Below are positions 5,993-53,687 of a DNA stretch of 64,000 bases, one piece after another. The position numbers were made by a program, and so were the translations under genes. The stretch spans positions 34,683 through 98,682 of the forward strand of contig JBEKBN010000001.1 in assembly GCA_050015375.1 (NCBI GenBank), in the 5' to 3' direction. The notes beneath the pieces are model-generated. The model saw nothing but the letters and a program-made list of their open reading frames with translations. It ran no database searches and was not told where the DNA came from. Each line of letters starts with the position of its first letter. Position 1 is the first letter of the stretch. Source of the stretch: Minisyncoccia bacterium. GTDB taxonomy: Bacteria; Patescibacteriota; Minisyncoccia; 2-02-FULL-40-12; IGHO2-01-FULL-4-A.

Positions 5993-6316
5993 ATGCGTTT
6001 TCAAGTTCCACAATTCATCGAGACCGAGACCAAGCTCGTCGGGCCGCTCACGCTCAGGCAGTTTATATACATCGGCGCCGGGGCGCTGATAATTTTCCTT
6101 CTCCGGTATGTTCTTACCAGCGTTTTTTTGTGGATCATGGCGGACATTCCCATCGGCGCTCTGGCCGCCGGTCTGGCGTTCTACAAAATTGACAGCGTGC
6201 CGTTGCCCCGCTATCTGGTGTCGGCGACAAGTTTTCTTTTCGGCGGCAAAAAATATATTTATAAAAAAGAACCGCCGGATAATTCCGATGTAAATCAACT
6301 CTTGAATAAAAATTAA
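5993..6316 (+). CDS. small 2-TM membrane protein (VirB3/PrgI-like position)
   Basis: 107 aa with two hydrophobic helices (GAGALIIFLLRYVLTSVFLWI, ADIPIGALAAGLAFY). Sits immediately upstream of VirB4-family ORFs, as VirB3/PrgI does in conjugation loci. Confidence 0.35.
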   Translation: MRFQVPQFIETETKLVGPLTLRQFIYIGAGALIIFLLRYVLTSVFLWIMADIPIGALAAGLAFYKIDSVPLPRYLVSATSFLFGGKKYIYKKEPPDNSDVNQLLNKN

Positions 6317-6317
6317 A

Positions 6318-6968
6318 ATGCCGCCAAACACCAAACCAGACAATAAAATAGCCACGACCAAGGATTTCGTCCAGATCGCCGATATCCGCGATTCGGTTTT
6401 GATCTTAAAAGACGGCGGTTTGAAATCTCTCATCGAGGTCAATTCGATGAACTTCGAGCTCAAATCAGCCGACGAGCAGACGGCTATTATTCAGTCGTTC
6501 CAGAATTTCGTGAACTCGCTGGATTTTTCTCTCCAGATCGTGGTCAATTCCCGAAAACTCGATCTCAAGCCCTATTTGAAATTCGTTGACGGCATCATCG
6601 CCGAGCAGAAAAACGAGCTTTTGAAGATCCAGGCCATTGATTACAGCCGGCTCCTGACCGGCCTGACCGAACTCTCCAACATTATGGAAAAAAAGTTCTA
6701 CGTCGTGGTGCCGTTTTTCGGCGTCGAGACGCCAAAGACCAAAGCCGGTTTTCTCAGCGCTTTCAAGGGCGTTCTGACGCCATCGGAATTTGCCAAAGCG
6801 ATCAGCGATGAGCAATTCCAGACCTACAAAACTCAGCTCGACCAACGAATAGAACTTATCGCCGGCGGCATCAGCGCTCTGGGACTTGAGGCCAAAGTTC
6901 TCAAAGATGACGAACTGAAAAAACTTTTCTATTCATATTACAATCCCGGGCAACATCTGGAAGCGTAA
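6318..6968 (+). CDS. VirB4-family N-terminal domain-like protein (possible 5' part of a split VirB4)
   Basis: 216 aa. DFVQIADIRDSVLILKDGGLKSLIEVNSMNFELKSADEQTAIIQSFQNFVNSLDFSLQIVV resembles the N-terminal region of Gram-positive-type VirB4/ConE/Orf16 ATPases, from memory only. In frame with the next ORF; separated from it by one TAA. Confidence 0.4.
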   Translation: MPPNTKPDNKIATTKDFVQIADIRDSVLILKDGGLKSLIEVNSMNFELKSADEQTAIIQSFQNFVNSLDFSLQIVVNSRKLDLKPYLKFVDGIIAEQKNELLKIQAIDYSRLLTGLTELSNIMEKKFYVVVPFFGVETPKTKAGFLSAFKGVLTPSEFAKAISDEQFQTYKTQLDQRIELIAGGISALGLEAKVLKDDELKKLFYSYYNPGQHLEA

Positions 6969-6983
6969 AACTCAAAACGAAAC

Positions 6984-8753
6984 ATGCCATTTTTCGGAAA
7001 GAAAAAAGAAAAAGTTCAGGAAGATACCGCCAAGAAAACCTTCGACGATATTTTGGCGCCTTCGGCGATAAATCTTTCGGCAAATTACATCCAGATCGGC
7101 GACAAATTCGCTCGGACCTTGTTTGTCATCACTTATCCGAGATACCTCAATACCAATTGGTTCTCGCCGATAATCAACATGGACCAGCCGATGGATATTT
7201 CTATTTTCATTCACCCCTTGGACACCGGCGTTATTTTGAAAAAATTACGTGACAAGCTTGGACGCCTTGAAGCCGAGGTCATGGAAGACGAGTCGGCCGG
7301 CAAGGTCCGCGATCCGGTCAAGGAAACGGCGGTCAACGACATTGAGGAGCTTCGCGACAAACTCCAGCAGGGCACCGACAGGTTTTTCGAATTCGGTTTG
7401 TATGTCACGCTTTATGGCGACTCGGTCAAGGAACTTGACGAAGTTGAGAATAAAGTTCGGGCGATTCTGGACGCCCAATTGGTCTACACTAAGCCGGCGA
7501 CTTTCCGGATGAAAGAAGGTTTTTTCTCGACCATGCCTTTGAGCAACGACCAGTTGGATGTCCATACTTCGCTTAATACCGAACCGGTTTCTTCGCTGTT
7601 CCCGTTCGTCTCTTACGACCTGACCACCGACAAAGGGATACTTTACGGCGTCAATTCGCATAACAATTCTCTGGTGCTTTTCGACCGGTTCAGTTTGGAA
7701 AATTACAACATGGTCGTCTTCGGTAAATCCGGCGGCGGCAAATCCTACGCCGTTAAATTGGAGATAATGAGAAGTTTGATGCTTGGCGTTCAGGTGTTCG
7801 TTATTGATCCTGAGAATGAATTCAAATATCTTGCCGATACCGTCGGCGGCACTTCAATAAAAATATCCATTTCGTCAGAGGACCACATCAATCCTTTCGA
7901 CCTGCCCAAACCCCAGCCAGACGAATCGCCGGCCGATGTTTTGCGTTCACATATTTTGGACCTGATCGGGCTTTTGAAACTGATGCTTGGCACGATCACT
8001 TCCGACGAGGAAGCTATTCTTGACGAAGCCGTCATTCAGACCTATGCCATCAAAGATATCACCCAAAATTCCGATTTTTCCAGCGCCACGCCACCTCTCA
8101 TGTCCGATCTCTTGAGCGTGCTTGAAGGCATGACCGGCGCCCAGTCGCTGGCTGTCCGGCTGAAAAAATATACCGAGGGCAGTTTCGCCGGTTTTTTGAA
8201 CAACCCGACCAATGTCCGGCTTGATAATCAGTTGGTCGTTTTCGGCATCCGCGACATGGAGGAAGAGTTGCGGCCGGTGGCGATGTATCTGGTTCTAAAT
8301 TACATCTGGGCTCAAGTCCGGAGCGACATAAGAAAAAGATTGCTGGCGGTGGATGAGGCCTGGGTTTTGCTGAAATACGAGGTTGGCGGCGCTTTTCTTC
8401 TCAATATCGCCAAAAGGGCCAGGAAATATTATCTGGGCCTGACGACTATCTCCCAGGACATTCCCGATTTCATGAATTCGGCTTACGGCAAACCGATCGT
8501 CACCAACTCATCGCTCCAATTGCTTTTGCGCCAGTCGCCGGCTTCCATTGACCTTGTCCAACAAACATTCAATCTGACCGATTCCGAGAAATTTTTCCTG
8601 TTGGAATCGCGAGTCGGCCACGGGCTTTTCTTCGCCGGCCAGAATCATGTCGCTCTCCAGGTCGTTTCTTCTTACGCCGAAGACCAGGTCATTACTTCCG
8701 ACCCGCGCCAACTGGCCGACATCGAAGAGGCCAAAAAAGAACTAGAAAAGTAG
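6984..8753 (+). CDS. virB4: VirB4/TrbE/CagE-family conjugal-transfer ATPase (ATPase core)
   Basis: Walker A VVFGKSGGGKSYAV. Walker B LLAVDEAWVLL (DEAW typical of VirB4/TraC). Region before Walker A (KFARTLFVITYPRYLNTNWFSPII...DISIFIHPLD) is typical of VirB4. Confidence 0.7.
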   Translation: MPFFGKKKEKVQEDTAKKTFDDILAPSAINLSANYIQIGDKFARTLFVITYPRYLNTNWFSPIINMDQPMDISIFIHPLDTGVILKKLRDKLGRLEAEVMEDESAGKVRDPVKETAVNDIEELRDKLQQGTDRFFEFGLYVTLYGDSVKELDEVENKVRAILDAQLVYTKPATFRMKEGFFSTMPLSNDQLDVHTSLNTEPVSSLFPFVSYDLTTDKGILYGVNSHNNSLVLFDRFSLENYNMVVFGKSGGGKSYAVKLEIMRSLMLGVQVFVIDPENEFKYLADTVGGTSIKISISSEDHINPFDLPKPQPDESPADVLRSHILDLIGLLKLMLGTITSDEEAILDEAVIQTYAIKDITQNSDFSSATPPLMSDLLSVLEGMTGAQSLAVRLKKYTEGSFAGFLNNPTNVRLDNQLVVFGIRDMEEELRPVAMYLVLNYIWAQVRSDIRKRLLAVDEAWVLLKYEVGGAFLLNIAKRARKYYLGLTTISQDIPDFMNSAYGKPIVTNSSLQLLLRQSPASIDLVQQTFNLTDSEKFFLLESRVGHGLFFAGQNHVALQVVSSYAEDQVITSDPRQLADIEEAKKELEK

Positions 8754-13918: not shown

Positions 13919-15289
13919 ATGACCAACGACGAGCTTTGGAAGGCCGTACTGAGCGAGATGGAAGTTTCTCTTTCAAGGGCTAATTTTACGACTTGGTTCA
14001 AGGGAACCACGATCGTTTCAAATTCGAACGGCGCCGTTTTGGTCAGCGTCCCCAATGGTTTTGTCAAAGAGTGGCTCGAAAATAAGTTTAATAAGCAAAT
14101 CTTCAAAGTGGTCCAGAATTACCACCCCGAGATCCGCGAGATAAAATATGCCGTCGGCAATAACCGCTCCCATTCTATCTTACCTAAAAAAGATTTTGCC
14201 CAATTCATTCCCGAGAAGATGGTTGACGACAGGTCCGATGCCGACATCGACAAGGTCACCAACCTCAACAAGCGCTACACTTTCGACTCCTACGTCATCG
14301 GCTCGAACAATGAGCTGGCTCACGCGGCCAGTTTGTCGGTGGCCAAAACCCCGGGCAAATTGTACAATCCGCTTTTCATCTACGGCGGGGTGGGGCTTGG
14401 CAAGACCCATCTCCTTCAGGCCACCGGCAATTTCATTTGTTCCAGATTCCCCGACAAAAAGGTTTCCTACATCTCTTCGGAACGGCTGACCTCGGACATT
14501 GTCGAATCCATCAAAAACCGGACTATCGAAGAGATGAAGCAACGCTATGCCAAACTTGATCTTCTTATCATCGACGATATTCAATTCATCGCCGGCAAAG
14601 AAAAGACCCAGGACATATTTTTCTCCACCTTCAACGAGCTTTATGGCAAGAACAAACAGATCGTCCTTTCTTCCGACCGGCCGCCGAGCGCCATTCCGGC
14701 CCTCGAAGCCCGACTGCGGTCGCGGTTCGAAGGCGGCATGCTGGCTGACATCGGCGCCCCAGATTATGAAACCCGCCTGGCAATACTTAAGATCAAAGCC
14801 AAAGAAAAGATCTTCGATATCGACAACGATTCTCTTTCATATATCGCCACCAATATCCAGAAGAATATCCGGGAACTTGAAGGCGCCCTGAACCGGATCA
14901 TCGCTTTCAGCCAGATCTACAATAAAGTTCCCAACCTCAAAGAGGTCAAAAAATTATTAGCGGCATATTTAAGCACGCCCTTCCGGAAAACCACTTATCA
15001 GTCCATCCTGAAATCAGTCGCCGATTTTTATGGCGTTTCTCTCAATGACCTGACCAAGAGGAGCCGGAAAAAAGAAGTGGTCCGGCCCCGCCAGGTGGCT
15101 ATGTTTTTGCTCCGCGAGGAAGCCAAATTGTCTTTTCCCGAGATCGGCTCCAAGCTTGGCGGCCGCGATCATTCCACGGCCATTCACGCCTATGAAAAGA
15201 TAAAAAAAGAAGAGGATGGAAACGAGAACACCAAACAGGAATTGGTTTTGATCAAAGAACGGCTTTATCAATCATTTGAAAGTTCGTAA
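13919..15289 (+). CDS. dnaA: chromosomal replication initiator DnaA
   Basis: Walker A GGVGLGKTHLLQA; Walker B LLIIDDIQF; sensor II and DnaA-box-binding C-terminal helix-turn-helix (VAMFLLRE...LGGRDHSTAIHA). Confidence 0.95.
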   Translation: MTNDELWKAVLSEMEVSLSRANFTTWFKGTTIVSNSNGAVLVSVPNGFVKEWLENKFNKQIFKVVQNYHPEIREIKYAVGNNRSHSILPKKDFAQFIPEKMVDDRSDADIDKVTNLNKRYTFDSYVIGSNNELAHAASLSVAKTPGKLYNPLFIYGGVGLGKTHLLQATGNFICSRFPDKKVSYISSERLTSDIVESIKNRTIEEMKQRYAKLDLLIIDDIQFIAGKEKTQDIFFSTFNELYGKNKQIVLSSDRPPSAIPALEARLRSRFEGGMLADIGAPDYETRLAILKIKAKEKIFDIDNDSLSYIATNIQKNIRELEGALNRIIAFSQIYNKVPNLKEVKKLLAAYLSTPFRKTTYQSILKSVADFYGVSLNDLTKRSRKKEVVRPRQVAMFLLREEAKLSFPEIGSKLGGRDHSTAIHAYEKIKKEEDGNENTKQELVLIKERLYQSFESS

Positions 15290-15522
15290 GGATACCAAAA
15301 ACTGTGGACAAGTATGTTCATGAATATCTCATGAGCGGCCGATAAATACTTGCTTGATTTTTCAAAATGATTCGCGGTATATTTTTTATCAGTCAGTTGT
15401 GAAATATTTACCACGATATTATTAACACAATGTTAGTTCCGAAAAGCCAGAGGATCATTGGACCAAATCGACAAAACAAAACTTATCAACAATCTTAATA
15501 GTAATGATTTCTTTTCTTTAAT
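15290..15522. promoter_or_regulatory. dnaA-dnaN intergenic AT-rich region with DnaA boxes (probable oriC unwinding part)
   Basis: TGTGGACAA (15303-15311) is the reverse complement of the TTGTCCACA box. TTATCAACA at 15486-15494. AT-rich tract 15500-15522. Confidence 0.5.
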
Positions 15523-16611
15523 ATGAATATAATTATTAACAGACAAAAACTTCAGTCGGCGCTTGGCGTGGTCGAGAAAATAATTTCCAAGAATGTTTCT
15601 TTGCCGATCCTCAATACCATTTTACTTAAAACCGAGAACGGCCGGCTGAAATTGTCGGCTACTAATTTGGAAATGGGCATCAAGTACTGGGTCGGCGCCA
15701 AAATAAACAAAGAAGGCGAAGTCGCCGTGCCCGCCAGAGTATTTTCTGATTTCATCAGCAACGTCAATGACGAAAAACTGAATCTGTCGGTGGAAAAAAA
15801 CGTCATTTCCATAAATTCTGAGCATTACAAAACCCAAATTCTGGGTCTTGATACCAAAGAATATCCGATCCTGCCCAAAGCCAAGAATGCCGTCGAATTC
15901 AAGATTTCCAGCTCGACCCTGAAGAATTCTCTGGCGTCGGTATTCGATTCCTCCTCGCTTTCCGAAACCAGACCGGAGATCGCCGGCGTCCTTTTGAATG
16001 TCGGCAAAAACAAAGCCGAATTCGCCGCCACCGACAGTTTTCGCCTGGCCGAGAAAATAATTGACGTCCGGGACGGCATAGACCGTTCAATGATCATTCC
16101 CCGGACGACGGCCTTGGAATTGATGCGGATCTCGGAAGGCGCCGAACAGGAATTGACTCTGGCGGTGGCCGACAATCAGCTTTTCGTTTCAGGCGAGGAT
16201 TTTGAATTCGTTTCCCGGCTCATTGACGGCCATTACCCGGAATACAAAAAAGTCATTCCCGAACGATTCGTGGCTTTGGCCAAAGTTGATAAGGCCGAAT
16301 TTGAGAGAAATATCCGGATGGCCAGCGTTTTTTCTTCCAATGTTTTTGATATCAAACTCAAAGCCGCCGGCAACCTGCTCCAAATAAAAGCCCAAAACAA
16401 CGATCGCGGGGAGATCCTGACCAACATTCCCTGCCTGGTGAAAGACGGACCGTTCGAGGTTTCGGTCAATTATCATTATCTTTTGGATGGCATCAAATCA
16501 ATTCCGACGGCCAATCTCATCATCCAATTCACCGGCGACGGCAGTCCTTTGGTTCTCAAAGGCGAAGAGAAAAAAGACCAGACGTATATCATAATGCCGT
16601 TGAGGGGCTAA
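15523..16611 (+). CDS. dnaN: DNA polymerase III beta sliding clamp
   Basis: 362 aa. MNIIINRQKLQSALGVVEKIISKNVSLPILNTILLKTENGRLKLSATNLEMGIKYW typical DnaN N-terminus. Confidence 0.9.
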   Translation: MNIIINRQKLQSALGVVEKIISKNVSLPILNTILLKTENGRLKLSATNLEMGIKYWVGAKINKEGEVAVPARVFSDFISNVNDEKLNLSVEKNVISINSEHYKTQILGLDTKEYPILPKAKNAVEFKISSSTLKNSLASVFDSSSLSETRPEIAGVLLNVGKNKAEFAATDSFRLAEKIIDVRDGIDRSMIIPRTTALELMRISEGAEQELTLAVADNQLFVSGEDFEFVSRLIDGHYPEYKKVIPERFVALAKVDKAEFERNIRMASVFSSNVFDIKLKAAGNLLQIKAQNNDRGEILTNIPCLVKDGPFEVSVNYHYLLDGIKSIPTANLIIQFTGDGSPLVLKGEEKKDQTYIIMPLRG

Positions 16612-19183: not shown

Positions 19184-19227
19184 TTCATAATCTTTGGATA
19201 AGCATATTTTGCCATAAAAAATCGATT

Positions 19228-19302
19228 TTTACAAACCCCTCACTTGGAAAATACTTGCGACAAGGTCGCGAAGTCCAAATAGTATTTTCCAAGTGAGGGG
19301 TA
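19228..19302. repeat. 75-nt hairpin with 20-bp perfect inverted repeat
   Basis: CCCCTCACTTGGAAAATACT (19228-47) / AGTATTTTCCAAGTGAGGGG (19283-19302). Loop contains the GCGACAAGGTCGC mini-hairpin. Confidence 0.6.
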
Positions 19303-19353
19303 AACAAAAACCCCGCCCATGAGAGGGCGTGAAGCGCTATCTCATGGGCGGGG
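19302..19353 (-). terminator. rho-independent terminator of the yebC-ruvC-acidic ORF transcript
   Basis: CCCCGCCCATGAGA / TCTCATGGGCGGGG 14-bp perfect stem. On the minus strand it is followed by TTTTTGTTT. Confidence 0.65.
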
Positions 19354-19361
19354 TCAATGTC

Positions 19362-24251: not shown

Positions 24252-24800
24252 ATGAATATCAAAGATGTAAAAACAGCAATAAAGGTTGGTGATTTTGTAT
24301 TGAGGAAAAATCATAGAAATAAAATAGATATCAAATATTTATCTAGTTTAAGCAGTGACATACTTACTGATAATTCGGCCAGGGTTTATTTAATAATTCA
24401 AGACGAGATTATTAAGAAAATCGGAGGCTCTGCTTCAAAAGGGGGAATTAAGGCAACAATGGCATTCTATGTTTCAGCCATGGAAGGAAGTCCGGGCGTC
24501 CCCAGGTTTGTTCTTCACCTCCTTATTGAAAGAGCTCTAATTGGCAAATCAAAAATGGAATTATACATGATAACTTCTCCTAAAACACTTGCCAGGGTCA
24601 GTGGCTTATTCGGCTATAAGAAAGTAAAAATTGCAAGTTTTAAGGAGATGGAGGATTTATGCAAATCCGATTATTTTTCGATAGAAAAGAAATATCCCGA
24701 TTGGAATTTCCAAGAAAATCACCAACCGTATCCTCCTGACTTGGCAAAAGAGCATAATTTATACCACCAAAGACGGCTCAAAAATAAACTTAAATTTTAG
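24252..24800 (+). CDS. hypothetical protein (AT-rich gene, convergent with lexA-dam fusion)
   Basis: 182-aa ORF at very low GC; no motif recognised. Confidence 0.35.
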   Translation: MNIKDVKTAIKVGDFVLRKNHRNKIDIKYLSSLSSDILTDNSARVYLIIQDEIIKKIGGSASKGGIKATMAFYVSAMEGSPGVPRFVLHLLIERALIGKSKMELYMITSPKTLARVSGLFGYKKVKIASFKEMEDLCKSDYFSIEKKYPDWNFQENHQPYPPDLAKEHNLYHQRRLKNKLKF

Positions 24801-26328
24801 GTGGACAGAAAATAATTATCTCGTGAGACTCTTTTATGTGATTCCCATTACCATTCCTTCGATTCAATCCTATTCTGGTTTCCCCTTGGCCCATAGTGTA
24901 TTGCCATGAAGGGAAAAGTTGCTGAAATTCCTTGTAATGTTCTTTTATCGTCGGGCAGTTATTATATGAGAGGATGAATCCTCCTTTATGATTTTTTAAC
25001 AAATCTCGCAAATCCTCATGAGGGAATCCCTTATGATGAACAGGTATATTTCTCATCGGATAGATCCCTTTAAACATTTTTGAATCTTTACCTATGTAAT
25101 AAGGGGGATCGCAATACAAAAAATCGTCGGGGTGATCTCTAATGACATCCCTAAAATCCGCACACTCAACTTTAAGATTATTGGGATCAAAATCTCGGAT
25201 ATTTTCAATTGTCCTCTTATATTTTTTGTCATTCAAATAAATGTCAGATGACCAGCCCATAAACCCTGGGCCATATGATAAATTGAAGTTGTAAACATAA
25301 TAGACAGCCAAAGTTAGCGGATCTAGTTTAACTTTCTTTTTCCACACATCATTCAATATTAATCTAATTCTTTCAAATGTTTCCTTGTTTGGTTTCAACT
25401 CTTTCAATTTTTTATAAAGAAGTTTTGGTTTATTAATCTGAAACCCCCAGTAATTACAGAGAATATCAAAAATATCATAACCAATAACTTCCAGGCCGAG
25501 TTCTTTACTCATGGCTATTTCGATTGAACCACCGCCGAAAAACGGTGATACAACCCTTTTTATATTCTCTGGCAGTAACTCAACTATATGACCCACGGCT
25601 AAACTTTTTCCACCCGCATATCTTATGGGGGAAAGAGCAACTCTTTTGTATTTGTTCTGACTGTCCGGATTAGAACTTCTGATACGGTCTAAGAAAGTTT
25701 TTTTTCTGAGCGCTAATGTATTGTTCTTATTGCCATTTTCCAAATTTCTTATAATTTTGATTACGATACCCCGGATCTCTAATTCTTTACGATAGATCGG
25801 CAATATTTCCTGATTTGCCGGTTGTAATCTAAAGCGTCCACTTTCTCGATAGATTTTTTTTAGGGTCGCCTTATCGTCATCAATAATTGCTACTACAGTT
25901 TGACCATCATCGGCGGTTTTTTGCTCACGAATTACCACGGTATCCCCGTCAAATATCCCATCGTTAATCATGCTATTGCCCGACACTCTTAATGCATAGT
26001 GCCTGCCAGCAATTGGAATTTCAGTCTGGGGAATAAAGATATTTTCTCCGTGCATCTCAAGCGCTTCAATCGGTTGACCAGCGGCAATTGTCCCGAGGAG
26101 GGGGATACGGACCAGTTTAGTCGAGGTTTTGACAATTTGAATTCCTCGCGCGCGGCCGTTAGCTTTTTCCAGATATCCCTTGTCCTGCAGGATCATCAGA
26201 TGTTCGTGTGCCGTTGACGGCGAAATCCTAAGTCGGCGGGCAATTTCACGTTCGGTCGGAGCGATGCCTTTTTTTGCGATGACTTTATCCACAAGATCTT
26301 TCACTTGTTTCTGTCTTGGTGTGAGCAT
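24790..26328 (-). CDS. LexA-like repressor (HTH + S24 peptidase) fused to Dam-type N6-adenine DNA methyltransferase
   Basis: N-terminus MLTPRQKQVKDLVDKVIAKKGIAPTEREIARRLRISPSTAHEHL (LexA HTH). ...VSGNSMINDGIFDGDTVVI...TLKKIY (S24 Ser/Lys dyad). Linker, then SPIRYAGGKSLAVGHIVELLP...SPFFGGGS (motif I) and LYCDPPYYIGK (DPPY motif IV) of D12-class Dam MTases. One uninterrupted 512-517-aa ORF. Confidence 0.65.
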   Translation of the reverse strand: MLTPRQKQVKDLVDKVIAKKGIAPTEREIARRLRISPSTAHEHLMILQDKGYLEKANGRARGIQIVKTSTKLVRIPLLGTIAAGQPIEALEMHGENIFIPQTEIPIAGRHYALRVSGNSMINDGIFDGDTVVIREQKTADDGQTVVAIIDDDKATLKKIYRESGRFRLQPANQEILPIYRKELEIRGIVIKIIRNLENGNKNNTLALRKKTFLDRIRSSNPDSQNKYKRVALSPIRYAGGKSLAVGHIVELLPENIKRVVSPFFGGGSIEIAMSKELGLEVIGYDIFDILCNYWGFQINKPKLLYKKLKELKPNKETFERIRLILNDVWKKKVKLDPLTLAVYYVYNFNLSYGPGFMGWSSDIYLNDKKYKRTIENIRDFDPNNLKVECADFRDVIRDHPDDFLYCDPPYYIGKDSKMFKGIYPMRNIPVHHKGFPHEDLRDLLKNHKGGFILSYNNCPTIKEHYKEFQQLFPSWQYTMGQGETRIGLNRRNGNGNHIKESHEIIIFCPPKI

Positions 26329-26343
26329 ATTATAATTATACAA

Positions 26344-33286: not shown

Positions 33287-33301
33287 ATATGTTGAGGCTT
33301 G

Positions 33302-33439
33302 CCCCTCACCCAGAAAGCATTAGTTCTGTACTTCGCAAGTCCTATTAGACCAGCCCCATTTACATAATCGGATGCTATGCGAATGGCTTTTTCAATCAGC
33401 AGAACCAATGTGGCTTGCAGATGCTTTCTGGGTGAGGGG
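33302..33439. repeat. 138-nt element bounded by 19-bp perfect inverted repeats
   Basis: CCCCTCACCCAGAAAGCAT (33302-20) / ATGCTTTCTGGGTGAGGGG (33421-39). Confidence 0.6.
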
Positions 33440-33526
33440 TTGACACGCCACCCATATTAAGCTAAAATTAGGTAGACAAGTTAATTCCCAATAAGGGATT
33501 TTTAATTTACGCGAAGCTACCCAAAA

Positions 33527-33690
33527 CCCTTGTAATCTGCAGGCAACTGAGGTCTTTTGATTCAACACCAAGCGGTCTCAATCGGAGTTTTTTCGCAGAT
33601 GGGCAATCTGGTTCCGACTGGATTAAACCTCGGTATTACTCTGCCCCGGGCTTCCTAGAAGTTCGGGAATTGCCTGCAGATTAGAAGGGT
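33527..33690. repeat. 164-nt element bounded by 20-bp inverted repeats (1 mismatch)
   Basis: CCCTTGTAATCTGCAGGCAA (33527-46) / TTGCCTGCAGATTAGAAGGG (33671-90). Interior holds an internal palindrome CCCGGGCTTCCTAGAAGTTCGGG. Confidence 0.55.
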
Positions 33691-33708
33691 TTTCCCTTGC
33701 CAAAAAAC

Positions 33709-35376
33709 TCACTGGCCAATAACCCTCATCACTTCCTCGATAGTGGTTTTGCCTTCGATAGCTTTGAGCAATCCGTCCTGAAGCAAAGTAATCATACCCT
33801 TAGCCACAGCCATTTCTCTAACATCGGAAATTGCCGGTGATCTCTGGATCAATTTCTCCAATTCTGGATCAATTTCAAATAATTCATAAACCCCGACCCG
33901 GCCGGAATAGCCGGTGGAATTGCAAGCCGCGCATTTGTCCGGATAAACGACCTCCGACTTCTCGTTGAAATTTTTCAAACGTTCATTGCCGTTTTTGGCG
34001 AACGCTTTTTTGATGATCTCAAAATCCTCTGGTTTTATTTTTTGTTTTTTGCCGCATTTTGGGCAAGGCCGGCGGACAAGACGCTGGGCCATGACGGCAT
34101 TGATGGCCGGAGCGATGGTGATGGGCTTGACCCCAAAGTCAATCAAGCGGGGGATAGCGCCGGCGGCGTCGTTGGTGTGAAGGGTCGAGAAAACCAAATG
34201 CCCGGTCAACGCCGCTTGCATGGCGATCTCGGCGGTCTCGACATCGCGGATCTCACCGACGAGAATGACGTCCGGGTCTTGGCGGACGATGGAACGGAGG
34301 CCGCTGGCGAAAGTATAACCGGCATCGGGTTCGACTTGGGTTTGGGCGATGCCTTCGATGTGATATTCAACCGGATCTTCAATGGTGATTATCTTGATGT
34401 CGGGATTGTTGATGTGTTTGATGAAAGCGTAAAGTGTCGTCGTCTTGCCTGAACCGGTCGGTCCGGTGGTCAGGATCGCGCCGGTGGTTTTGTCGAGTAA
34501 TTTTCTGATGATTTCCAAGGTGTCAGGACGCATGCCGAGATCTTCAAGTTTTTGTTTGATGGTCAACGGGTCGAGAATACGCATGACGATATCCTCGCCG
34601 TAACTTCCCGGCAGGATCGAAACCCGGACCTCGATGTCGTTGTCTTTTTCTCTGATTGTGAATCGGCCATCCTGAGGTGACTCGTGAATGTTTATTTTGA
34701 GACCCGACATCAATTTTATTCTTGAAAGCAATTGGCCGTAACCGTCGGGCGAAAAATTGACGACATCGTTCAAAACGCCGTCCAGCCGGTAGCGGAGGCG
34801 GATGGTTTTTTCCTCGGGTTCGAAATGAATATCGGAAGCCCCGATCTTCAAAGCGCCGGCGATGAGAATGTTGAGAACCTTGGTCACCGGCATGCTGGTC
34901 AGTTTGTCCTTGAGGTCGCTGATATTTTTGATCTCTTTTTCAATGCCCAAAATCCCGGTGTCTCCGATAGAAATGATATTGAGAGATTCTTGTGCCCCTC
35001 TCAAGGTGTAACGCTTCCAAGCCAAAGCCAAGCTGGTCTCAGAGACAACGGCCAGATCACAAATAAAACCGGCTGCCGCCAGTTTTGAGAGGGCTTCTTT
35101 GGTTTTGGGATTTTCCGGGTCAAGAACCGCCACTTTGAGCTTGCGGCCGGTCTTAGTGATGACGGCGAGTTGGCCGGCGTGGGCGTCGCTTTCGTCCAAA
35201 ACCGACAAAGCGTCTGAATCAATAGGGAAGGCCTTCAAATTGAGATAGGGAAGGCCGGTTTTTTTGGATAATTCCTTTGATTCGTCCTCAAATTGCTGGA
35301 GTTTCATCGCCTCCATCTTCTCATTGAGCTTTTTTTCGAGGTCGGAACTTGAATTGTTCGTGGTCTGTGGTGGCAT
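33709..35376 (-). CDS. type II/IV secretion-family ATPase (PilB/GspE-like)
   Basis: Walker A GPTGSGKTTTLYA; Asp/His boxes; C-terminal tetra-Cys CPKCG...CAACNSTGY of GspE/PilB. Confidence 0.85.
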   Translation of the reverse strand: MPPQTTNNSSSDLEKKLNEKMEAMKLQQFEDESKELSKKTGLPYLNLKAFPIDSDALSVLDESDAHAGQLAVITKTGRKLKVAVLDPENPKTKEALSKLAAAGFICDLAVVSETSLALAWKRYTLRGAQESLNIISIGDTGILGIEKEIKNISDLKDKLTSMPVTKVLNILIAGALKIGASDIHFEPEEKTIRLRYRLDGVLNDVVNFSPDGYGQLLSRIKLMSGLKINIHESPQDGRFTIREKDNDIEVRVSILPGSYGEDIVMRILDPLTIKQKLEDLGMRPDTLEIIRKLLDKTTGAILTTGPTGSGKTTTLYAFIKHINNPDIKIITIEDPVEYHIEGIAQTQVEPDAGYTFASGLRSIVRQDPDVILVGEIRDVETAEIAMQAALTGHLVFSTLHTNDAAGAIPRLIDFGVKPITIAPAINAVMAQRLVRRPCPKCGKKQKIKPEDFEIIKKAFAKNGNERLKNFNEKSEVVYPDKCAACNSTGYSGRVGVYELFEIDPELEKLIQRSPAISDVREMAVAKGMITLLQDGLLKAIEGKTTIEEVMRVIGQ

Positions 35377-35422
35377 GTACTAATTTTAACACTCAAAAGG
35401 TCTAATTTCTAAAAACTTATTC

Positions 35423-35490
35423 ACCCCGGTTAGAAGTCGGAAGTTTTTGACTTCCGCCGGCTCGCGTTAGCGAGCCGGACTTCTAACGGG
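35423..35490. repeat. CCCGTTAGA...TCTAACGGG-family palindromic element (variant GTTAGAAG)
   Basis: CCCCGGTTAGAAGTCGGAAGTTTTTGACTTCCGCCGGCTCGCGTTAGCGAGCCGGACTTCTAACGGGG; two internal hairpins. Confidence 0.6.
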
Positions 35491-35585
35491 GTTCACCTTA
35501 TTGACTTCGGTTTAGCAGTAATCACCCGCCCCGTCCAGAAAATTATCCACAGTCGGGATTGGCCTCCGACGAATTCGCATCCCCT

Positions 35586-35799
35586 CAGCCTTTTCTCGAG
35601 ACGCTTCGACTCTATGCGCCCAGCGGGCGCCTCATTGTCCTCCGCGTTTACGCTCCGGACAATCAAGGACGTCTCTCGCTTATCGTCGAATCCGTCCTCG
35701 TCCCTCCGCAGGCCTGCGGAGGGACACCTTGCTCGGACGTGAAAAACTTTGATTACAAGGATTTTTCACTGCGTCTTCGACGGTACTCGAGAAAAGGCC
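35586..35799 (+). ncRNA. candidate structured ncRNA / structured repeat, copy A (homologue of 53431-53687)
   Basis: Terminal inverted repeat CAGCCTTTTCTCGAG / CTCGAGAAAAGGC. Shares conserved blocks with copy B: CTCGAGACG.T.CGACTCTATG, CCCAGCGGG, ACAATC, CTTATCGTC, CCGTCCTCGTC, GACACCTTGCTCGGACGT, CTTCGACGGTACTC. Variable hairpins sit between blocks; one stem shows a compensatory change. Confidence 0.5.
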
Positions 35800-35899
35800 A
35801 AAGGGACGCCGATTTACATTCGGAGCCAAGCCCGACTTCTTCATGGAGGTTATTGGTTCTTTCAAAATTGGCTTGAGAGATATAGAATCGAAACATAGT

Positions 35900-36466
35900 A
35901 TGAGTATCCCAAAAAAATCGGCAATTGTTATAGTGGTGGTTTTGGCAGTTGGCGTTGGTTTGTGGGCGAGAAGGGCCAATGAAAACGAAATTGCTGCAAA
36001 ATTGGCGAGTGAGGAAACAGCGAATATCATTGCCACTCAAAACACGCCGGAGATTACACCGGAAGGAACATTGGCAAAAGTAATTCGGGTCATTGATGGC
36101 GATACGATCGTCATCGAAGGCGGGGAGCGCGTCAGATATATCGGCATGGACGCGCCCGAAACCGTTGACCCGAAAAAACCGGTTCAATGTTTCGGCCCGG
36201 AAGCTTCAGCTGAAAACAAATTGCTGGTCGAAGGCAAAACCGTCCGTCTGGAAAAAGATGTTTCTGACAAAGATATATATGGCCGCCTCTTGCGATATGT
36301 TTGGTTGGACGGTACCAACATTGACCTTGAATTGGTGCAACTTGGTTTTGCCTTCTCCGACCCTTTTCCACCAAACACAAAATACAAAAATCAAATTCTT
36401 CAAGCCGAACAATCCGCCCGCTCCGCTCATCTTGGTCTCTGGTCCGCCTGCCCGCCAAGGGATTAA
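35900..36466 (+). CDS. thermonuclease (staphylococcal nuclease/SNase-like), membrane-anchored
   Basis: N-terminal TM, then VIRVIDGDTIVIEGGERVRYIGMDAPE...GRLLRYVWLDG SNase fold motifs. Internal ATG 35900 (MSIPKKSAIVIVVVL) preferred over the track start. Confidence 0.7.
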   Translation: MSIPKKSAIVIVVVLAVGVGLWARRANENEIAAKLASEETANIIATQNTPEITPEGTLAKVIRVIDGDTIVIEGGERVRYIGMDAPETVDPKKPVQCFGPEASAENKLLVEGKTVRLEKDVSDKDIYGRLLRYVWLDGTNIDLELVQLGFAFSDPFPPNTKYKNQILQAEQSARSAHLGLWSACPPRD

Positions 36467-38504: not shown

Positions 38505-38608
38505 CTGAAGATCTGTTGACTTAATTTTTCGCTTTTGCTATACTTGAATTTCAAGGTTGAATGCTTTTATGTCCGCTAGATAAGCGGGCATTTCTGTAAT
38601 ATAACAAA

Positions 38609-38742
38609 TGTCCGAGCGCAGGCGAACGAAGTGAGCCGAGCACGGAAACAGTTGTTAACCCAGCACATAAAGCGTTATGTGCTGGGTGTAAGAATTGTTT
38701 CCGCTCGCTTCGCACTTCGTGCTTGCTCGCGGACAATTCTAA
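38609..38742. repeat. 134-nt imperfect long palindrome immediately upstream of nusA
   Basis: TGTCCGAGCGCAGGCGAACGAAGTGAGCCGAGCACGGAAACA ... TGTTTCCGCTCGCTTCGCACTTCGTGCTTGCTCGCGGACA. Central perfect 13-bp hairpin ACCCAGCACATAA-AGCG-TTATGTGCTGGGT. Confidence 0.55.
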
Positions 38743-41356: not shown

Positions 41357-41378
41357 ACCCCTCGCGAACGAGGGGTTT
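41355..41378 (+). terminator. hairpin directly after tig stop
   Basis: AAACCCCTCG-CGAA-CGAGGGGTTT 10-bp stem. Confidence 0.5.
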
Positions 41379-41401
41379 AAGCTGACCAACCAACCGGTTA
41401 C

Positions 41402-41424
41402 CTGCCGAGGCAGTTTTTCTCTTG
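41402..41424 (+). terminator. rho-independent terminator
   Basis: CTGCC-GAG-GCAG followed by TTTTTCTCTT. Confidence 0.5.
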
Positions 41425-41559
41425 CAAAAGAAGCGAAGCCGTTCTAAAATTAGAGTGACTTCGACGGCATCCCGCTAAAAGCGGGATGCAGGGTATTCGC
41501 AAGACCACGGCTGGTCAGTGTCTGGCATAAGTATAGCAGGTATAAAGTCGTTTGTCAAG

Positions 41560-46481: not shown

Positions 46482-46546
46482 CCCGTTAGAGGTAATCAAC
46501 CCTCGGGTTGATGCCGATTCGGATGTCCGAATCGGACCTCTAATGG
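46482..46546. repeat. CCCGTTAGA...TCTAACGGG-family palindromic element (copy e)
   Basis: CCCGTTAGAGGTAATCAACCCTCGGGTTGATGCCGATTCGGATGTCCGAATCGGACCTCTAATGGG; two internal hairpins. 12 nt upstream of the 3D-domain gene start. Confidence 0.6.
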
Positions 46547-46663
46547 GAATAAAAAACGGCCTATTAAGCCACTTTTTATGATAAAAGCCCTATTTGGGCT
46601 TCATGCTTCTAATACTATCACAGACCGTAATATTTGTCAACCCATGTTCGGGATTCTGTCAAC

Positions 46664-46740
46664 CCCGTTAGAAACAGCCCGCCCCAGGGCCTTTTGGGCG
46701 CGCTCACGTGCGGGCGTGGTTTCTAACGGGATCAAGTAAG
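46664..46740. repeat. CCCGTTAGA...TCTAACGGG-family palindromic element (copy f)
   Basis: CCCCGTTAGAAACAGCCCGCCCCAGGGCCTTTTGGGCGCGCTCACGTGCGGGCGTGGTTTCTAACGGG. Its CACGCCCGC...GCGCG...GGGCGGG core resembles copies a/b. Confidence 0.6.
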
Positions 46741-46750
46741 GGATTGCACG

Positions 46751-46780
46751 AAAAAACCGCCTCCAAAAAGGCGGTTTTTT
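46751..46780. terminator. bidirectional rho-independent terminator
   Basis: AAAAAACCGCC-TCCAAAAA-GGCGGTTTTTT. Confidence 0.65.
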
Positions 46781-46798
46781 CGCACAGACATAATTAAT

Positions 46799-49309: not shown

Positions 49310-49507
49310 GTTTGTGGATAAGTTATCAAACTGCCTGTTGATAGTATAGATTTATTATACAACGGGGTTCAAAAAATGAAAGTCCGTTTTGTGGATAAGC
49401 CAAAGAGAAAGTGCATAAACGAAAAACCGTCAATTTAATGACGGTTTTTCCGATGTGCCGTGGGTCAAAATTAAAACAGGCAAAAGCTTGTTTTAATTCT
49501 TGATTTG

Positions 49508-50855: not shown

Positions 50856-51578
50856 CTATACTGAACTTGCAATATTATGTAAATTATCAACCCGTAAAGC
50901 AGAATATATTTTTTTAAACTTTCTTTCAAGCCTTGGCCCTGTTGCGTTGTGGTAAACCCTCTCAATTAAAATTTTAGCTTCTTTTTTTGCGTATTTCAAT
51001 TGATATGCACGACATGTCTTATTGTAGTAATCTATATGTCCGTGAACATTGCATAATGCCATTGTTCTGTCTCTGAGCCATTTTAAATGATTTAAACTTG
51101 CAGACACAAACGATAGATAGAACAAGAAACTCGAAGCCCAGCGCTTATCCCAATAAGAATAAAAACTTCCGTCACCGTCCAAACAACCCCTGAGAAAATC
51201 GAAGTAATACTTATCCGGGATATCCAATTTTCCTAATATTTTTGATTTCGCTGGCATTAAACCAATCGAAAGTAAGAAATTATAGAAATTTTTATCTGTG
51301 AATTGCACGAAGTAATATTTTCGCTCCGGAGCAAAGCCGCTTTTCTTTAGGCACACCTTGCTATTTATTCCAAGGCATTTTTTAAATGTATCAATTTGGT
51401 CAATATCTTTTGACACAAAAACCATTGCCCTTCCATTTTTTGACAAGTTGCCATCTGTCGCAATTAGGCCTATAGCATACGCAAGTTTAGCTGACCATTC
51501 AGTAGATGTTCGTTTGAGCATCTTCATGCCATAATTATAACTCAAGCGGAAGCGTATAGCAATGCTCCCATTTAACAA
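50856..51578 (-). CDS. double-motif LAGLIDADG homing endonuclease
   Basis: Motif 1 LAYAIGLIATDGNL; motif 2 FLRGCLDGDGSF. 240 aa; ends 7 nt from the tRNA-Leu 5' end; AT-rich. Confidence 0.75.
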   Translation of the reverse strand: MLNGSIAIRFRLSYNYGMKMLKRTSTEWSAKLAYAIGLIATDGNLSKNGRAMVFVSKDIDQIDTFKKCLGINSKVCLKKSGFAPERKYYFVQFTDKNFYNFLLSIGLMPAKSKILGKLDIPDKYYFDFLRGCLDGDGSFYSYWDKRWASSFLFYLSFVSASLNHLKWLRDRTMALCNVHGHIDYYNKTCRAYQLKYAKKEAKILIERVYHNATGPRLERKFKKIYSALRVDNLHNIASSV

Positions 51579-53292: not shown

Positions 53293-53297
53293 AATTG

Positions 53298-53371
53298 TGC
53301 GCGTGCCTGGACTCGAACCAGGGACCCCGTCTTTATAAGAGACGTGCTCTAACCGACTGAGCTACACGCGC
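53298..53371 (-). tRNA. tRNA-Ile (anticodon TAT; reads AUA)
   Basis: Acceptor GCGCGTG/CACGCGC, D-arm GCTC-AGTCGGTTA-GAGC (Ile-like), anticodon arm CGTCT-CTTATAA-AGACG, T-arm CCTGG-TTCGAGT-CCAGG, discriminator A. Confidence 0.6.
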
Positions 53372-53430
53372 ATCACGTTCAATAAAATCATAGATTTTTT
53401 CGGAGAATTGGTCAATCCAACAACCAGATT

Positions 53431-53687
53431 GCGCCCGTTAGTTTCGAGAGTACCGTCGAAGCCGCAGTCCCGATTTGCGTAATCGCAAATCGCGGACGTC
53501 CGAGCAAGGTGTCGTGTTGTAATTTCCGCAGAGCGAAGCGGGTGGGAAATTACAACACGACGAGGACGGCGAGACGATAAGTGGAGACTTCATCTATTGA
53601 GCCGAGGATTGTCAGCAGACAAACGAGGCGAAATGATGTTCCCGCTGGGAACATAGAGTCGGAACGTCTCGAGAAACCAACAGGCGC
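53431..53687 (-). ncRNA. candidate structured ncRNA / structured repeat, copy B (homologue of 35586-35799); between ftsH stop and tRNA-Ile
   Basis: Minus-strand sequence aligns block-for-block with copy A. Larger variable hairpins: 17-bp stem GTCGTGTTGTAATTTCC/GGAAATTACAACACGAC and CCGCGATTTGCG-ATTA-CGCAAATCGGG. Closing stem GTTTCGAGAG/CTCTCGAAAC plus CCCGTTAG-like termini. Abuts the ftsH stop codon. Confidence 0.5.

Follow-up and report, generated by a model that had tools for sequence, protein, structure and literature searches.

The 64-kb stretch of DNA analysed here (hereafter the window) lies on contig k141_447878 of the ENA assembly ERZ27250144, which homologues of FtsH and PilB assign to a metagenome-assembled genome of a Minisyncoccia bacterium (Patescibacteria, or candidate phyla radiation (CPR)). 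Between pilB (33709-35376, minus strand) and a thermonuclease (SNase) gene (35900-36466, plus strand), it holds a non-coding, hairpin-rich element that belongs to a repeat family, which we denote F1. Coordinates are window positions (1 is the first letter) unless a separate locus, written L with a number, is named. The original prediction, made from the letters of the window, had described a two-copy, structured RNA-like element, the first copy lying between the same two genes and aligning block for block with the reverse complement of the second. Open reading frame (ORF) and domain context bears out that placement, and the alignment is present as described; the count of two, however, is superseded by a third copy on another contig of the same assembly. 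The copies are listed below with their scores under R1, a covariance model built from all three, and with the z-score of the fold energy against shuffled sequences.

35586-35799, plus strand: copy A of F1, whole element including the closing stem (249 bits, E 3e-70; fold z -8.7)
53431-53687, minus strand: copy B of F1 (204 bits, E 2.5e-57; fold z -9.8)
L010:559-785, on contig k141_245518 of ERZ27250144: copy C of F1, complete there

Copy C was first met in a pattern scan of metagenome contigs, severed by a contig end. Because the AlaS encoded beside it is 100% identical to the AlaS on a second ERZ27250144 contig, and the ENA assembly is the same, we place copy C in the same genome as A and B. 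The data on F1 comprise these three copies from a single genome, of whose roughly 1 Mb about 80 kb was inspected. The neighbours differ from locus to locus: pilB and the SNase gene for A, ftsH and a tRNA gene for B, and a response regulator and a phosphatase for C, which lies upstream of the histidine-phosphatase-like gene and then alaS. Copy B begins 2 nt past the ftsH stop codon, and 16 nt separate its end from the -35 element of a promoter-like site for tRNA-Ile. This tRNA gene (53297-53371, minus strand; anticodon UAU) follows ftsH here and in the relatives L005, L007 and L100; a tRNA-Ile with the anticodon UAU is uncommon in bacteria.

The F1 elements are 215-260 bp long and consist of conserved blocks interspersed with hairpins. 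Between copies A and B, 90 of 93 core positions (97%) are identical, whereas the inter-block segments are unrelated in sequence and length; despite this, each such segment is a near-perfect hairpin. In order, the core blocks are TTTCTCGAGACGyTyCGACTCTATG, CCCAGCGGG, CTTATCGTC, CCGTCCTCGTC, GACACCTTGCTCGGACGT and ACTGCGkCTTCGACGGTACTC, and every shared block named in the original prediction is found in both copies. The 18-mer GACACCTTGCTCGGACGT occurs exactly twice in the 64 kb, against an expectation of 0.03, and CTTCGACGGTACTC is likewise found twice in the window. Each copy carries three to four perfect hairpin modules, which are swapped wholesale between copies at fixed positions. The parts of copy A, followed by two modules of copy B, are as follows.

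35588-35600, plus strand: 5′ arm of the closing stem, GCCTTTTCTCGAG; its inner portion, TTTCTCGAG, is the end that the family conserves, and its outer part is locus-specific
35592-35616, plus strand: conserved 5′ block TTTCTCGAGACGCTTCGACTCTATG, 23/25 identical to copy B
35616-35630, plus strand: hairpin with the invariant CCCAGCGGG apex, its outer stem differing from that of B by two both-side changes
35637-35660, plus strand: copy-specific hairpin GTCCTCCGCGTTTACGCTCCGGAC
35679-35702, plus strand: conserved blocks CTTATCGTC and CCGTCCTCGTC, the 5′ strands of the invariant long-range helices
35700-35725, plus strand: module GTC-CCTCCGCAGGCCTGCGGAGG-GAC, in which CCTCCGCAGGCCTGCGGAGG is a perfect 20-nt palindrome
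35723-35740, plus strand: invariant block GACACCTTGCTCGGACGT, predicted to be single-stranded
35739-35769, plus strand: hairpin with a G-AUUA-C loop cap, on a stem that is different in B
35768-35798, plus strand: conserved 3′ block ACTGCGTCTTCGACGGTACTC and 3′ arm of the closing stem, CTCGAGAAAAGGC
53511-53561, minus strand: 17-bp perfect hairpin module of copy B, GTCGTGTTGTAATTTCC/GGAAATTACAACACGAC, replacing the 20-nt palindrome of A
53467-53497, minus strand: G-AUUA-C hairpin of copy B, on a 9-bp stem unrelated to that of A

The contrast drawn earlier between the palindrome of A and the 17-bp hairpin of B therefore holds, and copy C extends it: its GTC-CCTCCGCAGGCCTGCGGAGG-GAC module is identical to that of A, where B has a 51-nt hairpin. 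More widely, the 3′ half of copy C is that of copy A (97% over 117 nt), and its 5′ hairpin and outer stem differ. Four independent assemblies (from Logan, JGI and ENA; L002, L004/L011, L009 and L012) end inside copy A or C, and all four breaks fall at the boundary of the stretch common to the two; the F1 repeat breaks up assemblies of its host organism. The inverted repeats that had been seen to close A and B are present, the stem of B proving to be 15 bp long (GCGCCUGUUGGUUUC/GAAACUAACGGGCGC). At the termini of the copies, a short imperfect inverted repeat, TTTCTCGAGA...TCTCGAAA, is nested in a locus-specific palindrome. In all three copies the end repeat, some 8-10 nt in length (TTTCTCGAG(A)/(T)CTCGA(N)AA), lies innermost in the closing stem; in RNA terms it is part of helix P1. 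The flanks of the three copies are inverted repeats as well (GCC/GGC, GCGCCTGTTGG/CTAACGGGCGC and CTCTTGGTC/GACCAAGAG).

One frame, a 105-aa ORF (35559-35876), stays open across all of copy A, and on that ground the region might be thought to encode a small protein. The phase of the conserved blocks in A differs from that in B and C, however, and the corresponding frames there carry stops, which marks the ORF as spurious, as had been suspected. The length differences among the copies, moreover, are not divisible by three, copy A has no gene in the public annotation and no coding frame is kept across the copies. Frame analysis thus refutes the small-protein reading, to which we give next to no credence. 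Nor does F1 belong to a known RNA family: a scan of A and B against Rfam 15, whose models include riboswitches, ribozymes, HEARO, raiA and group I/II introns, returned nothing at gathering score (up to E 10, miRNA-type hairpin noise alone), in line with the earlier remark that the blocks were not recognised as signatures of tmRNA, RNase P RNA, SRP RNA or 6S RNA. Within the window, tRNAs alone reach the Rfam gathering threshold. Two further elements from relatives, F2 and C′, described below, likewise match no Rfam family, whether at gathering score or at permissive thresholds.

RNAalifold folds F1 into a closing stem, a 5′ domain and a 3′ domain. The predicted 5′ domain is a GAGAC/GUCUC helix around the CCCAGCGGG hairpin and one variable hairpin; the 3′ domain is formed by UAUCGUC../..GACGGUA and CCGU/GCGG around the variable GTC...GAC hairpin, the invariant ACACCUUGCUCGGAC, which is predicted to be single-stranded, and the G-AUUA-C hairpin. 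In a model-based alignment of the three copies, 92% of cells are paired, and 19 of 71 pairs have changed on both sides, against 7.0±2.2 in shuffles and 3-5 in slid controls (three sequences). Among them, at pairs 37-49 and 38-48, is the double change already pointed out in the CCCAGCGGG hairpin (CG/CG in A, UU/AA in B), which is thereby confirmed. Both-side changes are, however, confined to the local hairpins and the closing stem; in the long-range helices GAGAC/GUCUC and UAUCGUC../..GACGGUA (helices 2 and 6), which never vary among the three copies, there is no covariation. The two strands fold equally well, the stems are about 95% Watson-Crick, counts of G.U against A.C show no consistent strand bias and one module is a loop-less perfect 20-nt palindrome. 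Equal folding of the strands, Watson-Crick stems and a loop-less palindrome are as typical of palindromic DNA as they are of RNA helices. Since the complementarity of a palindrome can persist through arm-to-arm correction at the DNA level and recombination, the 'compensatory' changes are, taken alone, no demonstration of selection on RNA. The earlier argument for selection on pairing is thus right about the paired changes, but these are limited to the parts of F1 that are DNA palindromes.

These data bear on whether F1, together with F2 and C′, is a genuine family of structured non-coding RNAs, which we consider possible, although on balance improbable. Such an RNA would be made from an unrecognised promoter of its own or by read-through, followed by RNase III-like cleavage of the closing stem, and its conserved single-stranded parts, the core and the loop motifs, would carry the function, perhaps that of a protein-binding scaffold, a sponge or a new ribozyme. 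Much of what had first suggested a structured RNA stands: the element is non-coding, matches no Rfam family, is strongly structured (fold z-scores of -8 to -10) and keeps its pairing in the 19 pairs changed on both sides, and a core of about 93 positions is 97% identical beside unrelated hairpins. It is also in favour of an RNA that the long helices contain two invariant G.U pairs on the proposed strand and that the closing stem of B has two G.U pairs. On the other side stand the invariance of the long-range helices, the lack of strand asymmetry in folding or in G.U counts, and a sample of three sequences from one genome.

Signals of transcription around the copies belong to the neighbouring genes. 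A scan for the sigma-70-type consensus on the strand of each element gave no promoter-like site 5′ of A, B or C, nor was anything resembling a terminator found 3′ of them. At all three loci, promoter-like sites for the downstream gene lie 3′ of the element; those in the window, with that of pilB, are listed here.

35383-35411, minus strand: promoter-like site for pilB
35861-35901, plus strand: promoter-like sites for the SNase gene, downstream of copy A
53387-53415, minus strand: promoter-like site TTGACC-17-TATGAT (10/12), between copy B and tRNA-Ile

With the pilB site on its 5′ side and the SNase sites on its 3′ side, copy A sits in a spacer between divergent promoters. Copy C lies in a spacer of the same kind, and the promoter-like TTGACT-16-TAACAT that follows it is conserved in a relative. 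The TTGACC-17-TATGAT site puts the tRNA-Ile promoter downstream of copy B, which fills the spacer between the ftsH stop codon and that promoter. All three copies point the same way as the downstream gene, a regularity that would suit an RNA gene and would also suit a cis-regulatory leader (a riboswitch or attenuator) of that gene, for which the core is complex and conserved enough. As a leader, though, F1 would serve unrelated genes (those for the SNase nuclease, tRNA-Ile and the histidine-phosphatase-like protein), it would be cut off from them by the promoter-like sites between element and gene at 3/3 loci, and the orthologous genes in relatives lack it; we hold this role to be highly unlikely. 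For the non-coding RNA, the missing promoter and terminator signals are a further point against.

Orthologous sites in relatives are empty or otherwise occupied. In relatives whose FtsH is 79% and 76% identical, the site of copy B reads ftsH, a hairpin and T-run terminator, a promoter and tRNA-Ile(tat), with no element, and the ftsH-tRNA site is empty in L005, L007 and L100. As the relatives have a terminator and no element, copy B is lineage-specific and stands at the usual position of the terminator. At the site of copy C, a relative with 84% identical AlaS has flanks that are about 97% identical around a very different element, C′, a 230-nt structure (z -8.5) with a 16-bp closing stem and two G-AUUA-C hairpins. 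C′ shares short similarities alone with F1 (TTTCTC, TyCGAC, CCTCGTC and GG.TACTC), and its 3′ arm persists as a remnant, GGGATGGCTCGC, in the host species of F1. One of its hairpins, GCAC-TTTCTCG-ATTA-CTCGAAA-GTGC, consists of the F1 ends with nothing between them ('ends only'). The site of copy A holds an F2 element in the same orientation in a relative with 72% identical PilB, and an 11-bp stem alone in one with 74% identical PilB. F1 thus has dispersed copies (three loci in one genome) that are polymorphic for presence and absence (the empty ftsH-tRNA sites). That close relatives have empty sites or other elements at the orthologous positions speaks against a conserved RNA gene.

F2 occurs in related Minisyncoccia, in three copies.

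L013:3738-3913: F2 copy
L098:2384-2565: F2 copy, called as a 68-aa gene
L098:3752-3903, minus strand: F2 copy

Its architecture is one of long closing stems, a side hairpin capped by CCCAGCGA, then CAUCC, and a long helix, UUGUCGGUUGCC/GGCACCGACAA, around a terminal hairpin that in one copy has a G-AUUA-C cap. The conserved blocks are CCCAGCGA, UUGUCGGUUGCC/GGCACCGACAACGG and GACCAUGCU, hairpins are again swapped wholesale and 17 of 63 pairs have changed on both sides. F1 and F2 share a grammar of closing stem, CCCAGCG hairpin, GUCG/CGAC long helix, AUUA hairpin and swapped hairpins. When applied to an F2 copy with filters off, model R1 gives a weak match (E about 1e-3), so homology between F1 and F2 is plausible but not proven; F1, C′ and F2 seem to form a wider group of elements with a common style of construction in related genomes, of which F1 is one branch. 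The usual places of the group are the spacer between divergent promoters and the interval from a stop codon to the next promoter. Although the host proteins are only 70-84% identical, the outer parts of two F2 copies match at 95-97%, and these copies come from different organisms and occupy non-orthologous loci. In L098, two inverted copies bracket a 274-aa ORF of unassigned function. We rejected a conserved partner gene beside F2: its two adjacent ORFs show no relationship to one another, and Pfam gives no domain in either.

The same comparison raises the question of what is conserved across the group. The asymmetric CCCAGCG and G-AUUA-C loops are kept in F1, C′ and F2 on different stems, and a similar long inverted repeat flanks a tRNA gene in a relative, which suggests that processing stems exist in the lineage; both observations count in favour of a non-coding RNA. 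A broader version would unite F1, C′ and F2 in a superfamily of structured Minisyncoccia RNAs whose RNA form is the one that functions or propagates, for instance as a self-cleaving or self-mobilising RNA or as the scaffold of a ribonucleoprotein. Its common traits would be the processing-type closing stem, the CCCAGCG-capped hairpin, the GUCG/CGAC helix and the G-AUUA-C tetraloop hairpin. We regard such a superfamily as rather unlikely; if the proposal were true, turnover at the DNA level would be a consequence of RNA activity. The orientation of F2 is inconsistent with the flanking transcription, which tells against an RNA gene.

Searches for further members were made with R1 and with R2, a model of F2. 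As the original prediction had proposed, a covariance model was used to look for more copies: R1 found no further F1 copy in the window or in an extra 9.4 kb of the source contig (L017), and across the loci covered it recovered A, B and C alone. Neither R1 nor R2 found a member in 0.87-1.0 Mb of Patescibacteria ftsH loci (for R1, 870 kb from 53 other Patescibacteria), a set of mostly distant genomes (≤68% identity) that tests breadth rather than close relatives; the absence of F1 from those 870 kb again disfavours a non-coding RNA family. Collections were scanned with exact two-block patterns, which gave no match in genome contigs and none in viral contigs. In metagenome contigs, a collection that is incomplete and lacks the pattern-bearing L010, the matches listed included one true hit (copy C) and one chance hit. 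Comparison with phages and plasmids by blastn gave nothing, and the literature searched held nothing relevant on CPR repeats or RNAs and nothing containing the F1 block sequences. F1 is restricted to one Minisyncoccia lineage. We call the family new because its blocks are absent from Rfam, from the phage, plasmid and viral-contig sequences and from the literature searched; its kind, that of structured mosaic intergenic repeats, is already known, and its architecture and CPR host set it apart.

Several known RNA systems resemble F1 in part. Like large orphan structured RNAs that were defined by comparative genomics and are in Rfam, such as the raiA motif, HEARO and ROOL, it measures about 200-260 nt and combines many helices, conserved junctions and variable peripheral stems; unlike them, it has no Rfam match, no long-range covariation, no stable genomic association and no conservation at orthologous loci. 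With TIGR arrays and IS110 bridge RNAs it shares short conserved motifs that alternate with variable segments, and hosts among parasitic bacteria (PMC12045711). A TIGR array consists of tandem units with two alternating 8-12-nt repeats and 9-nt spacers beside a Nop-domain Tas gene, and TIGR-Tas and related systems have been reported from parasitic bacteria including Patescibacteria (PMC12045711). By analogy with these, or with omega RNAs and retron non-coding RNAs, F1 might supply a guide or a scaffold RNA to some mobile element or defence system encoded elsewhere in the genome, its conserved core binding the protein and its variable segments giving specificity. We consider this very unlikely. 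No Nop/Tas, IS110, IscB, TnpB or reverse transcriptase gene lies beside the copies or in the window; the variable parts are self-complementary stems instead of single-stranded guides, and a comparison of their arms with 80 kb of the genome gave no match elsewhere. Tandem 8-12-nt repeats with 9-nt spacers and box C/D-like UG...CCA motifs are likewise absent, and Rfam gives no match to HEARO or IS605-type RNAs. In particular, we rejected a TIGR array, since F1 is a single unit without such periodicity and the window has no Nop-domain ORF, and a retron RNA, since no reverse transcriptase gene adjoins any copy.

A different comparison is offered by the mosaic intergenic repeats of bacteria, such as BIMEs of E. 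coli, BOX of Streptococcus pneumoniae, ERIC and the Correia elements of Neisseria. Like F1, these are non-coding, 100-250 bp long, multi-copy, strictly intergenic and self-complementary, with conserved and variable or optional modules; they are present or absent at orthologous sites, are often found next to a terminator or a promoter and, once transcribed, fold into stable RNA structures. F1 has no sequence similarity to any of them. Its core is a long asymmetric set of blocks in place of a simple imperfect palindrome, its hairpins are replaced wholesale at fixed positions within a locus-specific outermost stem, and it has a very low copy number so far, in a CPR host with a small genome. Membership of the REP/BIME type itself, which has palindromic units of 20-40 nt in high copy number and a RAYT transposase in the genome, was rejected on the 215-260-nt unit, the asymmetric core, the three copies seen and the lack of a Y1-transposase domain in the window ORFs.

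We prefer to read F1 as a lineage-restricted, mosaic, palindromic interspersed repeat comparable to BIMEs, BOX and the miniature inverted-repeat transposable element (MITE), an assignment on which our confidence is evenly balanced. In its behaviour F1 is closer to a DNA repeat that is interspersed and exchangeable than to an RNA gene of the classical sort. The preference follows from its being multi-copy, restricted to one lineage, and absent or replaced at orthologous sites; from conserved ends inside locus-specific palindromes and mosaicism between copies; and from the lack of strand asymmetry and of transcription signals of its own. Further support comes from the three copies at unrelated loci, the assembly breaks, the 'ends only' hairpin in a relative, the F2 copies of the same grammar at non-orthologous loci with their inconsistent orientation relative to transcription, and the lack of a conserved neighbouring gene, none being common to the copies.

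The original prediction had named a plain MITE as one outcome that would overturn it, and F1 comes part of the way: it is short, non-coding and dispersed, with a short, imperfect inverted repeat at its ends (TTTCTCGAGA/TCTCGAAA; part of helix P1 in RNA terms), empty sites and an ends-only derivative. It departs from a MITE in that the copies show no target-site duplication, clear insertion boundary or consistent direct repeat, the flanks being inverted repeats, and in that whole modules are replaced where a MITE would have scattered mutations, inserts standing at fixed and not at random positions. No autonomous element with F1 ends was found in window ORFs, viral contigs, phages or plasmids, and Pfam detected no transposase, reverse transcriptase, IS110, TnpB or RAYT-like gene among the roughly 50 ORFs of the window. 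The missing target-site duplication and insertion boundaries, the fixed positions of the inserts and the lack of a transposase or autonomous partner also weigh against a mosaic repeat, as do several other points. Only three copies were seen in about 80 kb of genome. Copies A (plus strand) and B (minus strand) lie on the same side of dnaA-dnaN (13919-16611) in opposite orientations, so that, on these two copies, a replication-strand bias of the IS200/IS605 type is not seen, which argues against strictly strand-specific transposition of single-stranded DNA. CPR promoters may escape a sigma-70-type scan. Finally, the core has stayed 97% identical among hairpins that are saturated with change, and the asymmetric loop motifs are conserved across F1, C′ and F2; both fit purifying selection on a single-stranded functional molecule.

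If F1 is a mosaic repeat, its gain, loss and exchange would take place in the DNA of intergenic spacers that form hairpins, and its stems could stay complementary through DNA-level processes, namely templated correction from arm to arm and recombination between copies. The conserved core and the loop motifs CCCAGCG and G-AUUA-C would be the part recognised by the propagating factor. Copy B, in the place of the terminator, would be read through from ftsH to give a very stable RNA structure, which may serve as a 3′ end protector or a terminator substitute.

F1 is not the only such element in this genome, which seems rich in nested palindromic intergenic elements. The gaps 19216-19356, 33287-33708, 38505-38722, 41357-41517, 46500-46798 and 49310-49506 contain long perfect hairpins and have fold energies well below those of shuffled sequences (z -6 to -17), and closing stems of the type ACCCCTCAC.../...GTGAGGGGT recur in such gaps and also close F2 copies in relatives. 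Just 5′ of copy A lies a Y-shaped element (35424-35491) closed by CCCCGGTTAGAAG.../...CTTCTAACGGGG; its inverted repeat CCCGTTAGAA/TTCTAACGGG recurs in the window at about 46.6 kb and 62.6 kb and flanks a tRNA-Pro gene in a relative (L014:1514-1624), which suggests either a processing stem or a repeat that captures tRNAs. The nusA leader (38505-38722, plus strand) starts from a consensus promoter, TTGACT-17-TATACT, and continues into about 180 nt of very stable hairpins (z -8.8); upstream of nusA, L098 has an F2 copy instead.

The perfect DnaA-box nonamer TTATCCACA occurs six times in the 64 kb (26285, 26370, 35543, 49313, 49390 and 59272), against about 0.5 expected, at scattered intergenic positions. 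One box is kept upstream of pilB in relatives (L098 and L099) as ATATCCACA, adjoining a conserved CTTCGGTTTAGCA. The idea that the pilB-SNase spacer, with its perfect box, is a replication origin was dropped, as dnaA/dnaN is 20 kb away and the boxes are scattered. Two perfect TTATCCACA boxes stand at the start of a 517-aa ORF (24790-26343, minus strand) that joins a LexA DNA-binding domain, an S24 peptidase and a D12-class N6-adenine DNA methyltransferase in an unusual fusion. A conjugative or type IV secretion element may be integrated beside the dnaA region, to judge from the PrgI, TraC-like and VirB4/TraG-type ATPase genes at 5993-8753 and L017:1-183 and from a large serine recombinase some 15 kb upstream. 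A 240-aa ORF by tRNA-Leu (50856-51578, minus strand) has a weak, sub-threshold match to LAGLIDADG_3, and relatives carry inteins in FtsH (P0005 and P0018) and GyrA (L005); elements of the homing-endonuclease type seem common in the lineage.

To our knowledge, the non-coding content of the small, streamlined genomes of CPR/Patescibacteria is almost unexplored. The lineage studied here carries families of hairpin-rich repeats, large and modular, whose hot spots are the spacers between promoters and the stretches that follow stop codons; one such repeat, copy B, occupies the position of a terminator. These findings bear on genome evolution, on the fragmentation of assemblies and on transcript ends. 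The sharply conserved core and loop motifs point to a recognising factor, whether protein or RNA. Identifying it would reveal a new mechanism of mobilisation or a new RNA function in an uncultured lineage.

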